Shown here piece after piece: positions 59,578-64,000 of a DNA stretch of 64,000 nt (position 1 is its first letter; each line of letters starts with the position of its first letter). A program made the translations under genes and the position numbers. Below the pieces are notes generated by a model. That model made no database searches. It saw only the letters and a list, made by a program, of their open reading frames with translations, and had not been told where the DNA came from. The DNA comes from Acidobacteriota bacterium (GTDB lineage: Bacteria; Acidobacteriota; Polarisedimenticolia; JACPZX01): positions 103,043 through 167,042 of the forward strand of contig JACPZX010000030.1 of assembly GCA_016195325.1 (NCBI GenBank). Direction: 5' to 3'.

Positions 59578-61461
59578 ATGAGCGGCGTGAGCGTTTCGGT
59601 CGGCCGGGCCGCCGGTGCCACGTTACAGAAGGTGCTGGAGGAGAAGGGCCTCGTCACCGCCGAGGAGCTGCAGCGGGCCCGCCGCGTCTGGGATCGACTG
59701 GAGCAGAAGGGGCCGTTCGGCGCGCATCTCGTGGCCCTGGGCCTCGTCACCCGCGAGCAGCTCGAGGCGGCGCAGTCGGCGATCCGGGAGTCGCTCTCCC
59801 CCGCGGAGATCCTCGTCGAGATGGGGCGCCTCACCCCCGAGGCCCTCGCCCGCGCGGACGCGGCCGCGCACCGCGCCGGCGCTCCCGTCGAGTCTGAGCT
59901 CGTCGCCTCCGGGGCGACGACCGAGGAGTCGCTGCTCGAGGCGCGCGCCGCCAAGCACGGCCTCGAGGTGATCGCGCTCGAGCCGGAGATGATCGACCTG
60001 GGCCCTTACCGCCGGGTTCCGGCCTCCACGTGGCGCCGGCTCCAGGTCCTCCCGATCGCGCTCCCGAGCGGAAGCTGCGGCCTCGCGATGCCCCGGGTCG
60101 ACGCCGACGCCATCCTCGAGATCCGCGACGCCGTGGGAAGGAATCCGGTCACGAGGCTCTGCAGCGCGACGGCGATGAGCGCGACGCTCAAGGCGCTCGA
60201 GACGCCGCCCCGGCCGCCGGCGGGCGCCCCCCCTGCCGTCGAGGCGCCGCGCGACGGCAGCACCGCCGAGATCGTCGATCGCCTCATCCGCACGGCGCGG
60301 CGCGAGCGCGCGAGCGACATCCACATCGAGCCCGGCGAGACGAAGTCCCGCGTGAGGCTCCGGATCGACGGGCGGCTCGTGCCGATCGCCGAGCTCGGCG
60401 CCGAGCAGGGACGCGCCGTGACGGAGCGGCTCAAGATCCTCGCCGGGTGCGATTTCACCGATCGCACGCGCCACCAGTGCGGCCGCTTCTCCGTGGGCGT
60501 CGACAACGAGAGCGTCGACGTCACCGTCTCGACCTTCGTCTCGGGGCACGGAGAGGATCTCGTCCTCCGGATCCTGGCCCGGAAGGTGGGGCTGGTCGGG
60601 CTCGAGCGGCTCGGCCTCTCGCCGATCATGCTCCGCGAGCTCGTCGACCAGGGGCTGTCGAGCCCCGAGGGGCTCTTCCTCGTGACCGGGCCGAGGGGGA
60701 GCGGGCGCACGACGACGCTCTTCAACGCCATCGACTACTGCAACGACGTCTCGCTCAAGATCATCTCCGCCGAGGATCCGGCCGAGTTCTCCCTCCAGGG
60801 AATGATCCAGTGGTCCCGCCGCCCGGCCGGCGGCCCCACGGTCGCCGAATCGATCCGCGCCAGCCTCAACCAGGATCCGGACGTGGTCGTCATCGGCGAG
60901 ATCCTCGACGCGGAGACGGCGGCGCTCGCCGTCGAAGCGGCGCTCCGCGGCCACCGCGTGTTCGCCACCTTCCGGACGGAGAGCGCCGCGGGGGCCGTCG
61001 TGCGCCTCCTCGACATGGGGATGGAGCCGTTCCTCGTCGGCTCGACCGCCCGCGCCGTGCTCGCGCAGAGGCTGGTGCGGCGCATCTGCCCCGAGTGCGC
61101 GGAGGAGGCGTCCCCGCCCGCCTCGGAGCTGCGCCTCCTGGGAATCTCCCCGCGCGACGCGGCCGCCTACCCGCTGCGGCAGGGACGCGGATGCCCCGGG
61201 TGCCACATGACCGGCTACCGCGGGCGGATGGGCGTCTTCGAGCTGGTCGTGGTCGGCGACGCCCTCCGCGACGCGATCCTCGAGCGCGCGCCGCTCCGGG
61301 AGATCGAGCGCCTCTGCCTCGACGTTCCCGGATACCTCACGTTGACCGAGGACGCGGTGATCAAGGCGCTCCAGGGCCTGACCACGCTGTCGGAAGTGAT
61401 CCACCGCACCCCGCGCGCCCACATCCGGCCCGCGCGCCAGCTCATGGAGAGAGCCTCGTGA
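59578..61461 (+). CDS. GspE/PilB-family (type II secretion / type IV pilus) ATPase-like protein with N-terminal GSPII_E_N (MshEN-like) domains. Catalytic residues are degenerate, so it is probably a pseudo-ATPase.
   Basis: Start trimmed to ATG 59578 (MSGVSVSVG...). Walker A reads GPRGSGRTTT (canonical GPTGSGKTTT, Lys to Arg). Asp box and Walker B (DPDVVVIGEILD) are present. The His box reads TFRTES (canonical TLHTN, His to Arg). The tetracysteine motif is intact (CPEC...CPGC). The N-terminus has motifs like LVALGLVTREQLEAAQ. Confidence 0.8.
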   Translation: MSGVSVSVGRAAGATLQKVLEEKGLVTAEELQRARRVWDRLEQKGPFGAHLVALGLVTREQLEAAQSAIRESLSPAEILVEMGRLTPEALARADAAAHRAGAPVESELVASGATTEESLLEARAAKHGLEVIALEPEMIDLGPYRRVPASTWRRLQVLPIALPSGSCGLAMPRVDADAILEIRDAVGRNPVTRLCSATAMSATLKALETPPRPPAGAPPAVEAPRDGSTAEIVDRLIRTARRERASDIHIEPGETKSRVRLRIDGRLVPIAELGAEQGRAVTERLKILAGCDFTDRTRHQCGRFSVGVDNESVDVTVSTFVSGHGEDLVLRILARKVGLVGLERLGLSPIMLRELVDQGLSSPEGLFLVTGPRGSGRTTTLFNAIDYCNDVSLKIISAEDPAEFSLQGMIQWSRRPAGGPTVAESIRASLNQDPDVVVIGEILDAETAALAVEAALRGHRVFATFRTESAAGAVVRLLDMGMEPFLVGSTARAVLAQRLVRRICPECAEEASPPASELRLLGISPRDAAAYPLRQGRGCPGCHMTGYRGRMGVFELVVVGDALRDAILERAPLREIERLCLDVPGYLTLTEDAVIKALQGLTTLSEVIHRTPRAHIRPARQLMERAS

Positions 61462-62309
61462 ATGCCGTGACCGCCGAGACGTCGGTGCTCGAGAGCGTCC
61501 TCAAGCACGTCCGCGAGGGGGGCCCCGGCATCCCCTCGGTCCCCGCGGCGGCCGCCCGCATCCGACAGATGGCCGGCAGCGATCAGGCGGGCGCGCGCGA
61601 GCTGGGAGGCGCGGTCGGCCAGGATCCGATCCTCGCGGCCTCGCTCCTGAGGTACGCGAACTCGGCGATGTACCGGGGGCTGAGGCCCGTCACCGATCTG
61701 CACACGGCCGTCGCCCGCCTCGGGATCAAGATGGTCATGGCGGCGATGATGGCCGAGCTGAGCCGATCGCTCTACCGGTTCCAGGATCCCGAGGACAGCG
61801 AGCTCTTCATGACGCTCTGGCGGCACGCGGTCGCGTGCGGCGAGACGTCGCGACGCGTGGCGAGGCTCGTCCGGTATCCCGAGCCGGAGCAGGCGTTCAT
61901 GGTCGGGCTGGTCCACGACATCGGCAAGGTGGCGTCGCTCGCGAGCCTCGCGCACCTGAAGTCGCGGGGCGACATCCAGTGGCCGCGGGCCGTCGCGATG
62001 GAGTTCATCCGCGAGACGCACGCGACCGTCGGCTCGGAGCTGCTGAGACGCTGGAAGATCCCCGCCGAGCTCTGCGAGATGGTCCTCCATCATCATCGCG
62101 AGCTCACCGCGTCGTCGGGGGTCGCCCCCGCGATCCTCCAGTTCGCCGATCTCGCGTGCGGCAAGCTCGGTTACGCCCAGGACCCGACCCCCGAGGCGTC
62201 GCTCCTCGCCGAGCCCTCGGCCCACATCCTCGGCCTGAACGACCTGACCATCGCCTCGCTCCTCGTCGATCTGGAGGAGGCGCTCCCCGCCGTCACCCGG
62301 GAGATCTGA
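61458..62309 (+). CDS. HDOD-domain signalling protein.
   Basis: GTG start overlapping the upstream stop as GTGA. HD-related output domain features (LVHDIGKV..., HH HRELTAS). Confidence 0.65.
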   Translation: MNAVTAETSVLESVLKHVREGGPGIPSVPAAAARIRQMAGSDQAGARELGGAVGQDPILAASLLRYANSAMYRGLRPVTDLHTAVARLGIKMVMAAMMAELSRSLYRFQDPEDSELFMTLWRHAVACGETSRRVARLVRYPEPEQAFMVGLVHDIGKVASLASLAHLKSRGDIQWPRAVAMEFIRETHATVGSELLRRWKIPAELCEMVLHHHRELTASSGVAPAILQFADLACGKLGYAQDPTPEASLLAEPSAHILGLNDLTIASLLVDLEEALPAVTREI

Positions 62310-62832: not shown

Positions 62833-64000
62833 GAGGGCGTCTCCGCGGCGGCGCCGAGCTGAAACCTCCGGACCTTCCGGTAGAGCGTCGACCGCGGGAT
62901 CGCCAGCAGGATCGCCGCCTGCTTGTAGTTCCCCTCCGTCTTCGCCAGCACGTCCTGAATGTGCCGCCGCTCCATCTCGTCGAGCGTCGCAACCGTTGCC
63001 GCCTGCGACCAGTCCCAGCCGTCGAGATCCTGGAGGTCGGCCGGGCGCACGATCGGCCTCGGGGTGAAGAGGGCCACCTTCTCCGACAGGTTCTGGAGCT
63101 CGCGGACGTTGCCGGGCCACGGGTAGGAGAGGAGCATCTCGAGCGCGCGGGGGGAGTACTGCCGCGCGGGGCGCTTGAGCCTCTCGCACGTCTCCGCCAG
63201 GATCCGCTCGGCGAGAACCACGATGTCCTCCGGGCGCTCCCTCAGGGGGGGCATCTCGACGACGAGGCGGCTGAGCCGGTAGTACAGATCGCTGCGGAAC
63301 GTCCCCGCGGCCGCCGCCTTCTCGAGATCGACGTTCGTCGCGGCGATGACGCGCACGTCCACCTTGAGCGGCACGCTCGACCCCGCCGGCCGGATCTCCC
63401 CCTCCTGGAGGACGCGCAGCAGCGCCGCCTGAGTGGCCGGCGCGCACTCGGCGATCTCGTCGAGGAAAATCGTCCCGCCGGCCGCCGTCTCGAAGAGGCC
63501 GATCCGCTTGCGATCGGCGCCGGTGAAGGCGCCGCGCTCGTGGCCGAAGAACTCCGACTCCTGGATGTCGCGGCTGATGTTGGCGCACGAGACCGGCACG
63601 AGCGGTCCGCGGCTCCGCGAGCTCAGGCGATGGATCTCGCGCGCGGCGACCTCCTTCCCGCATCCGGACTCGCCGAGGATCAGCACCGGGCTGTCGTGCG
63701 GGGCGGCGCGCCGGATGAGCATGAAGACCTTCTTCATGGCCGGGCTCCGGCCGAGGAGGGCGCCGAGGCCGGCGGGCTCGCCGAGCGCGTGCTCCAGCGC
63801 GGCGAGCCGGACGGCCATCGCGCCATGCTCCGCCGCCTTCTCGACCGTGACGAAGAGGAGCTCGGGGTCGAGGGGCTTGGTCAGGAAATCGTAGGCGCCG
63901 CGCCGGATGCACTCGATGGCGGTGCGGAGGTCGGAGTCGCCCGTGACGACCACGATGGGGGCGCCGTGGCCTCTCTCCTGGAGCGCCTCGAGGAGCTGGA
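62826..64000 (-). CDS. Sigma-54-dependent transcriptional activator (NtrC family). C-terminal about 390 aa; the N-terminus is beyond the window end.
   Basis: End of a receiver domain (IVVTGDSDLRTAIECIRRGAYDFLTKP). AAA+ sigma-54 interaction domain (GESGCGKE, GAFTGA motif as ERGAFTGA, arginine finger). C-terminal Fis-type HTH. Confidence 0.85.
   Translation of the reverse strand, partial: QLLEALQERGHGAPIVVVTGDSDLRTAIECIRRGAYDFLTKPLDPELLFVTVEKAAEHGAMAVRLAALEHALGEPAGLGALLGRSPAMKKVFMLIRRAAPHDSPVLILGESGCGKEVAAREIHRLSSRSRGPLVPVSCANISRDIQESEFFGHERGAFTGADRKRIGLFETAAGGTIFLDEIAECAPATQAALLRVLQEGEIRPAGSSVPLKVDVRVIAATNVDLEKAAAAGTFRSDLYYRLSRLVVEMPPLRERPEDIVVLAERILAETCERLKRPARQYSPRALEMLLSYPWPGNVRELQNLSEKVALFTPRPIVRPADLQDLDGWDWSQAATVATLDEMERRHIQDVLAKTEGNYKQAAILLAIPRSTLYRKVRRFQLGAAAETPSY

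Follow-up and report, generated by a model that had tools for sequence, protein, structure and literature searches.

ATPases of the PilB/GspE type are the textbook motors of pili and secretion systems, and a member of this family that lacks much of its catalytic apparatus and stands apart from any such machine raises the question of whether it has been kept for another purpose or is on its way to being lost. We address this question for a T2SSE-family protein (MBI3448773.1, hereafter the window ATPase) encoded in a 64,000-nucleotide stretch of an Acidobacteriota genome (assembly GCA_016195325.1, contig JACPZX010000030.1, positions 103,043 to 167,042), which we refer to throughout as the window. 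The stop codon of its gene overlaps the start codon of a gene for an HDOD protein, and genes for a FliL homolog and for a convergent sigma-54 activator follow (Table 1). A first-pass annotation of this DNA had seen in these genes a repurposed pseudo-ATPase signaling module, sensing a nucleotide or cyclic di-GMP (c-di-GMP). Our analysis leads us to hold, with moderate confidence, that the window ATPase has lost its catalytic activity but preserved its fold and belongs to an ATPase-HDOD signaling pair, in which it acts as a static partner of an intact HDOD protein with a predicted metal-binding site, and with an output that is possibly flagellar. The unusual feature of this locus is the degenerate ATPase and not the gene pairing; the conserved pair, which lacks any associated machine, is arguably the more interesting lead.

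Catalytic residues and predicted fold of the ATPase

Window residues were mapped to Geobacter PilB numbering through their alignment to 5zfr_A (5ZFR chain index minus 14), residue roles were taken from McCallum et al. (PMC5424180), and 390 family members were aligned to one profile, with 15 catalytic and interface positions scored against the consensus. Deviation from the consensus is highest in the window ATPase, which departs from it at nine of the 15 positions, and every residue that it has lost is at least 98% conserved in the 390 relatives. The substitutions of the Walker A lysine and of the His-box histidine reported in the first-pass annotation are confirmed and belong to a more extensive set, which also comprises R316T, R443L, T457R, D301C and R297T. 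The His box is GHRVFATFRTES, reading TFRTES where relatives have T(L/F)HT(N/E)D, and the Walker B motif DPDVVVIGEILD contains GEILD where relatives have GEIRD. All 119 other best homologs carry GPTGxGK, GEIRD and the His-box histidine.

Expressed in PilB terms, the residues lost are T327 (R373 in the window ATPase), the Walker A lysine (R377), R271 (T316), T411 (R457) and H420 (R466), and those kept are E357 (E403), R286 (R331), E395 (E441) and H413 (H459). Thus five are replaced among nine residues listed for the nucleotide site and closed interface of PilB, the majority of which PMC5424180 names. In PilB, H420 contacts the gamma-phosphate, R271 and R286 are the arginine fingers and E357 binds magnesium; in PilT-like ATPases, mutations in these motifs abolish ATPase activity (PMC5424180). 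From these replacements we infer, in agreement with the earlier prediction, that canonical ATP hydrolysis by the window ATPase is very unlikely, and its reading as a pseudo-ATPase is well supported at the sequence level. A sequencing error was rejected as the source of the substitutions, because the same sequence is found both in the NCBI metagenome-assembled genome (MAG) and in the Logan assembly of run SRR12113409, and because several of the replaced codons differ from their ancestral counterparts by two or three steps.

The hallmarks of the fold are present, as had been noted, with the Asp box, the catalytic Glu441 and all four zinc-motif cysteines in place. The protein matches Pfam T2SSE with an E-value of 1.5e-87 (294 bits), and its core is 37-40% identical in alignment to solved PilB, PilF and GspE structures. 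An AlphaFold2 model (predicted local distance difference test score, 82.4) was matched by Foldseek to the Thermus thermophilus PilF core (5oiu_B) with a template-modeling (TM) score of 0.93 and a root-mean-square deviation of 2.1 Å, and in this model the ATPase fold, consisting of the N2D and C-terminal ATPase domains, is retained. Among 81 sequences of the clade described below, 85 columns are at least 93% conserved; the window ATPase deviates in 14 of them, most of which surround the nucleotide site, and typical members deviate in 0-4. As judged from these columns, the remodeling is site-specific and not global.

A conserved ATPase-HDOD pair

The window ATPase probably belongs to a distinct clade of T2SSE ATPases, marked by HQDGR (in canonical PilB/GspE, PQDGR), by GHKVxxTFHTED (in canonical PilB/GspE, GHLVxSTLHTND) and by a C-terminal PR...RP...L tail that canonical members lack. 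The window ATPase keeps the tail (TPRAHIRPARQL...) and the histidine of HQxGR, reads HQCGR at the first signature and GHRVFATFRTES at the second, and sits on a long basal branch of the clade in a neighbor-joining tree. Its full-length relatives are collinear with it at 41-43% identity. We refer to the window ATPase together with P0009, P0011, P0012 and loci L086, L095 and L115, at this same level of identity, as the near sub-clade. Clade members of nearly full length number well above one hundred in the sequences collected, with Geobacter and many Desulfobacterota among them.

Gene pairing was surveyed through a DNA-level scan of metagenome contigs for the His-box signature, which yielded 80 loci; a locus was considered informative if its downstream sequence reached 900 bp or more. 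In 37 of the 41 informative loci the ATPase gene is immediately followed by an HDOD gene on the same strand, often with an overlap, and the four loci without it form one subgroup with the His box GHKVFATFHTED. The coupling of the window ATPase gene to its HDOD gene through the GTGA overlap, which the first-pass annotation had pointed out, is therefore real and an instance of a conserved arrangement. The pair also occurs in Candidatus Eisenbacteria, in locus L003 (a contig from run ERR14373513) and in Geobacter sp. OR-1 (P0351), where housekeeping genes lie on its flanks; many Desulfobacterota MAGs are counted with these by clade membership of the ATPase alone.

We then considered the 112 neighboring open reading frames (ORFs) of 37 related loci. 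Neither GspF/PilC (T2SSF) nor pilin or secretin is among the 25 most frequent families listed for these ORFs, and neither all-against-all clustering nor Pfam counts of them revealed a conserved third partner; the neighbors are scattered signaling proteins (six response regulators, four histidine kinases and three methyl-accepting chemotaxis proteins). Likewise, the window holds no pilus, type II secretion system (T2SS) or flagellar gene other than that of the FliL homolog, as had been observed, and no second T2SSE-type paralog. The loci listed by a whole-protein search of genome contigs were canonical PilB/GspE loci, none with the HTED signature. Because only the HDOD gene is conserved nearby and no machine genes are, the clade does not have the genomic setting of a classical pilus or secretion motor, and the earlier view of the locus as a repurposed module and not a secretion ATPase stands as far as this conserved, machine-less pair is concerned; its c-di-GMP component is unsupported. 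The statement that no characterized system is known to have such a composition holds in that searches of the literature on HDOD with MshEN or PilB, and on pseudo-ATPases of the T2SSE family, found no description of the ATPase-HDOD pair, but the pair itself is widespread.

Pairing with HDOD survives motif loss in three other degenerate members of the clade: P0160, with the degenerate Walker A GPLESGR, is followed by an overlapping HDOD gene, and the genes of P0184 (His-box histidine replaced by alanine) and P0249 (Walker B lost) are each immediately followed by one.

The HDOD partner of the window ATPase matches Pfam HDOD at 142.8 bits (E-value 1.2e-41) and HD at 3.2e-9. It keeps 28 of the 30 HDOD columns conserved in the clade, both deviations being conservative, and it aligns to the Geobacter sulfurreducens HDOD structure 3HC1, in which five histidines and one aspartate coordinate two iron ions, with H123, H153, D154, H188, H212 and H213 conserved. 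Judged from its sequence, the partner is intact and has the full predicted metal site. In a sister lineage (P0392-P0395, from ENA, JGI and NCBI-TPA) the HDOD protein is 92.6% identical, with mostly conservative changes; the NCBI-TPA record of this lineage, HZE89512.1, is binned as Verrucomicrobiae.

Several variants of the ATPase architecture were encountered during the survey. In P0160 (L207, 6001-9599) a ParA/MinD-like domain (CbiA, AAA_31) is fused N-terminally to MshEN-T2SSE. P0154 (L210-L212, 6001-11353) is a partly degenerate relative with GEIND and HADD; in place of HDOD, the gene that comes next encodes a 1100-residue Ser/Thr kinase with tetratricopeptide repeats, and a gene for diadenylate cyclase (DAC) is nearby. 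The top-scoring matches P0002-P0008 and P0121-P0135 are proteins of about 1000 residues with two complete T2SSE ATPase cores in tandem, and in most of them the Walker B motif of the second core is NPNIxMxGEIRD.

The N-terminal domain and c-di-GMP

The N-terminal repeats had been likened to the c-di-GMP-binding MshEN motif. The resemblance holds for the hydrophobic pattern, which is present, and fails at the key residues, which are replaced. The region scores 27.7 bits (E-value 2.8e-6) against Pfam MshEN, with a cutoff of 23.1, and reaches a marginal 39.1 bits with the NCBIfam c-di-GMP_motif model, whose cutoff is 38. The window ATPase holds zero copies of the 24-residue MshEN motif of Wang et al. 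(PMC5013675), even in relaxed form, and relative to Vibrio cholerae MshE (5HTL) the replacements are R9 to S74, L10 to P75, G11 to A76, Q32 to A97, R38 to P103, G40 to E105 and Q61 to K126. Good copies of a c-di-GMP-type motif are found in many typical members of the clade, for example RIGSLLVELGYIHEADLNAALHLQ (RxGxxLLxxG...Q type). Among near-clade relatives with intact ATPase motifs most lack the MshEN motif, and L095 and L115 keep relaxed copies. Sensing of c-di-GMP through MshEN, as proposed in the first-pass annotation, is on these grounds unsupported in the window ATPase; we grade it as unsupported and not as excluded because the regular-expression test is imperfect, returning zero for 44 of 120 typical members.

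FliL, the sigma-54 activator and the flagellar neighborhood

The third gene of the locus encodes a genuine member of the FliL family (Pfam FliL, 4.8e-26, 91.7 bits), which matches the solved FliL chains 9hmf_O (1.8e-17) and 7sgn_A and stays below cutoff with all NCBIfam FliL equivalog models. It had been described as a FliL-like lipoprotein; the lipoprotein status is unproven, because its lipobox, F-L-A-C, is non-canonical. The gene is probably co-transcribed with the ATPase-HDOD pair. The convergent activator has receiver, AAA+ and HTH_8 domains (Pfam Sigma54_activat, 7e-63) and carries GAFTGA (GHERGAFTGA in translation). A search for sigma-54 promoters (TGGCAC-N5-TTGCW, at most two mismatches) gave none near the module, and matches overall were below chance. 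Neither FliL nor sigma-54 activators are among the 25 most frequent neighbor families listed for the 37 related loci. FliL is a lineage-specific neighbor and the association with the sigma-54 activator is not conserved, so that the supposed trio with its activator, taken earlier as one system, reduces to a conserved pair and lineage-specific neighbors.

Flagellar genes recur in the near sub-clade. At the Eisenbacteria locus (P0011) a second HDOD gene, MotA, MotB, an HD-GYP-like gene and FlgK adjoin the pair, and at L003 (P0009) FliK, FliI, FliH and FliG do so; at L095 and L115 a Sel1 protein follows HDOD and the neighbors are not flagellar, and the context of L086 is too short to judge. Flagellar neighbors are thus found in three of five lineages, the window included, and flagellar motor genes in two of the four others with context, which is thin but suggestive evidence for a connection of the near sub-clade to the flagellar motor or stator, one that does not extend to the clade at large. 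At the Eisenbacteria locus (L002, 2449-7792), the second HDOD gene, MotA, MotB and the HD-GYP-like gene (HD_5) form, with a gene for a pyridine-nucleotide disulfide oxidoreductase, a divergent operon that the pair faces.

Proposed role and alternative explanations

The explanation that we favor can be set out as follows. Members of the clade would function together with an HDOD protein, translationally coupled and equipped with a full metal site, and without a pilus or secretion machine. In the Acidobacteriota lineage the ATPase has kept its fold, zinc finger and clade tail, with its nucleotide site and the inter-subunit nucleotide-sensing interface remodeled through T373R, K377R, R316T, R443L, T457R and H466R, and it is, like the near sub-clade, also without the MshEN c-di-GMP signature. 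The protein would no longer cycle through ATP hydrolysis and would instead be a static partner of HDOD, either with a nucleotide bound and unhydrolyzed or nucleotide-free, and the HDOD protein or protein-protein contacts, not ATP turnover, would determine the output. The analysis shows the family, the fold, the motif losses, the conservation of the pair and the intactness of the partner, whereas the end of hydrolysis, the scaffolding part and the tie to flagella are inferred from these. The flagellar motor or stator may be that output, as the downstream FliL and the flagellar neighbors of the near clade hint, although this is a speculative step. A bolder version, which we consider quite unlikely, would make the pair a widespread undescribed signaling unit, independent of any pilus or secretion machine, and the ATPase of this lineage a true pseudoenzyme with a phosphate pocket re-lined by four arginines, which accepts another anionic ligand or locks the metal-containing HDOD protein permanently; the unit would tune the flagellar stator through the co-transcribed FliL.

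Several observations weigh against the favored explanation. Replacement of the P-loop lysine by arginine is by itself no proof of lost nucleotide binding, and the high rate of zero counts among typical members renders the absence of the MshEN motif weak evidence. The flagellar association comes from three loci and is absent from L095 and L115 and from the 37 surveyed loci. Two of the sister-lineage HDOD records end at the same position, residue 203, where they could have either a premature stop or the end of a contig in common, and the ATPase protein of that lineage was not found in protein searches; a search with the C-terminal 229 residues, which listed only short proteins, gave nothing above 51% identity. 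The module could accordingly be decaying in the sister lineage. Finally, no full-length ATPase relative exceeds 43-44% identity among 5.8e9 clustered proteins or, in an exhaustive HMMER search, 1.84e9 cluster representatives, and none is close enough to reveal selection on the substitutions.

Some of these observations also speak for decay, in which the unit or its ATPase activity is no longer needed and the substitutions are neutral lesions on the way to a pseudogene. The window ATPase is a singleton without a close relative, it has lost both the ATP and the c-di-GMP ligand signatures, and the sister lineage contributes two HDOD records that end at residue 203 and an ATPase that searches did not find. 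When ATPase divergence was regressed on HDOD divergence for 31 lineages, moreover, the most negative residual, at -7.4 points, was that of the window. Against this, the residual exceeds those of the near-clade relatives by only some 2-3 points, and the core identity of the window ATPase to its relatives, 44-49%, is little lower than the 46-52% between the independent lineage L115 and the P0009 group of these relatives. The 627-codon ORF is intact, with a third-position G+C fraction of 0.89 like that of its neighbors, and the zinc-binding cysteines, Asp box, catalytic glutamate, clade tail and fold core are all kept, the substitutions clustering at the active site. The codons of R377 (CGC, at least two steps from AAR), R466 (CGG) and R457 (CGC) each differ from the ancestral codon by two steps or more. 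Changes of two or three mutational steps mark the substitutions as old, yet the gene is still open. The coupled HDOD protein keeps nearly all of its conserved columns, and the pair is kept in three independent degenerate relatives. Decay, in view of this, appears unlikely.

Two further explanations were considered. Pseudoenzymes often act with active paralogs, and the window ATPase might co-assemble with, or regulate, an intact paralog elsewhere, in mixed hexamers or as a cap. Its hexamer-forming fold and the retention of R331 (R286 in PilB), H459 and the inter-chain Arg501 (R455) would be compatible with such a role, and degenerate members recur inside an otherwise active clade; the window, however, holds no paralog, and the tight translational coupling indicates HDOD, not another ATPase, as the partner, and we regard the proposal as improbable. 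The site might alternatively have been re-wired into a still active NTPase, or into a site for another anionic nucleotide ligand, with R373, R377, R457 and R466 in place of the lost lysine, histidine and arginine finger. Charge is roughly conserved, since four arginines are gained for one lysine, one histidine and two arginines lost, and the magnesium-binding Glu403 and the catalytic Glu441 remain. The near-invariance of each lost residue among the 390 relatives, the abolition of activity by motif mutations in PilT-like ATPases (PMC5424180) and the lack of a precedent in our literature searches make re-wiring very improbable.

Comparison with known systems

The window ATPase has the fold, zinc motif, Asp box, catalytic glutamate and N-terminal GSPII/MshEN-type domains in common with the PilB/GspE/MshE ATPases (Geobacter PilB, 5TSH and 5ZFR; PilF, 5OIU; V. 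cholerae EpsE, 1P9R; Pfam PF00437). It differs from PilB and GspE in the replaced Walker A lysine and threonine, one arginine finger, T411, H420 and the arginine after the catalytic glutamate, in its HQxGR clade signature, C-terminal tail and coupled HDOD gene, and in having no GspF/PilC, pilin or secretin nearby. With the typical members of its own clade (Geobacter sp. OR-1, Desulfobulbaceae and Eisenbacteria P0011) it shares the tail and the downstream HDOD gene; these members have intact GPTGSGKTT, GEIRD and HTED, and many a c-di-GMP-type motif, whereas the window ATPase has none of these. A precedent for signaling without hydrolysis by a PilB-family protein is offered by Myxococcus xanthus PilB, which regulates exopolysaccharide without need of ATP hydrolysis and whose nucleotide-free form has been proposed as the signaling state (PMC5544727). 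That protein, however, drives pili as a bona fide motor, and its nucleotide site and c-di-GMP motifs are intact, whereas the window ATPase shows a natural loss and has no pilus context.

As regards the partner, 3HC1 scores about 69 bits against the window HDOD protein and is not an ortholog, although all six metal ligands are in common. We also considered 3HC1 as the HDOD partner of the Geobacter clade ATPase and rejected it; the Geobacter OR-1 partner is no ortholog either. Pseudomonas SadB, an HDOD adaptor for AmrZ proteolysis, is unlike the window HDOD protein in lacking three of the histidines and in having an extra YbaK domain. HDOD proteins are linked to the control of motility and attachment, and none is known to act together with an ATPase of the PilB type. 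FliL is a flagellar stator-associated protein, and the window homolog likewise has an N-terminal hydrophobic anchor; it differs in having no other flagellar gene in the window and in not being a conserved neighbor of the ATPase-HDOD unit.

The association of the clade with HDOD and not with machine genes points to a regulatory job for a motor fold and would provide a first concrete partner for the HDOD domain. Natural catalytic losses in which the partner is kept suggest that this job, or at least some of it, does not require ATP turnover, and the degenerate members constitute ready-made mutants for testing it. A flagellar link, if true, would add a new layer of motor control; mere decay, if true, would be an ordinary finding.

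Organization of the locus

Features of the locus are collected in Table 1. The window has a G+C content of about 70%, and its remainder encodes glycogen metabolism, a PAS histidine kinase, rho, a sigma-70 factor, peptidases, ABC transporters and Ser/Thr kinases. The ATPase gene has a GGGAG Shine-Dalgarno sequence 8 nt 5' of its ATG. Because the 3' ends of the FliL and activator genes overlap by 7 nt, there is no space for terminators between them.

Table 1. Coordinates of the features discussed (window positions)
Feature	Position	Strand	Remarks
Glycogen/alpha-glucan cluster	50367-59200	-	Divergent from the ATPase gene
Sigma-70 promoter, TTGACG-18-TATAAT	59224-59253	-	Near-consensus (11/12 matches), toward the GH57 gene 57050-59200
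Structured intergenic region	59260-59580		Predicted folding -186 kcal/mol (z = -6.3)
Inverted repeat, 27 nt, perfect	59270-59296 and 59425-59451		Arms 128 nt apart; unique in window
ATPase gene, GspE/PilB-like (T2SSE family), 627 aa	59578-61461	+	MBI3448773.1; NCBI gene call identical; degenerate catalytic motifs
N-terminal part	59617-60201	+	Helical repeats, residues 14-128; MshEN/GSPII N1 domain (Pfam MshEN), residues 127-208; c-di-GMP signature degenerate
Arginine-finger position, Thr316 (ACC)	60523-60525	+	Geobacter PilB R271; Arg in 387/390 relatives
Walker A, GPRGSGRTTT	60688-60717	+	T373R (AGG), K377R (CGC); Lys in 387/390, Thr in 383/390 relatives
Asp box, EDPAEF	60772-60789	+	Mg-coordinating Glu403 (PilB E357) kept
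Walker B, DPDVVVIGEILD	60874-60909	+	Catalytic Glu441 kept; invariant Arg two residues on replaced by Leu443 (Arg in 386/390 relatives)
His-box region, RGHRVFATFRTES	60946-60984	+	By alignment, T457R (PilB T411), H459 kept (H413), H466R (H420)
Tetracysteine zinc motif	61087-61203	+	C504, C507, C539, C542, all four kept
Clade-specific C-terminal tail	61402-61458	+	Kept; canonical PilB/GspE without tail in alignments
HDOD gene, 283 aa	61458-62309	+	MBI3448774.1; GTG start overlaps ATPase TGA stop (GTGA, 61458-61461)
FliL homolog, 163 aa	62341-62832	+	N-terminal hydrophobic segment; begins 31 nt past HDOD gene
Overlap of FliL and activator 3' ends	62826-62832		7 nt
NtrC-family sigma-54 activator, receiver-AAA+-HTH_8	62826 to beyond 64000	-	Convergent; N-terminus cut at window end

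The glycogen cluster upstream contains two GH57-family genes, a GalT-like gene, GlgA, a PAS histidine kinase with a response regulator, and GlgC, and the GH57 gene nearest to the intergenic region is preceded by the sigma-70 promoter; none of similar quality was detected for the ATPase gene. An Rfam scan of the intergenic region 5' of the ATPase gene gave no match and no riboswitch. This divergent region of 377 bp harbors the inverted repeat, which may represent a small mobile element or have a regulatory function as a folded structure.

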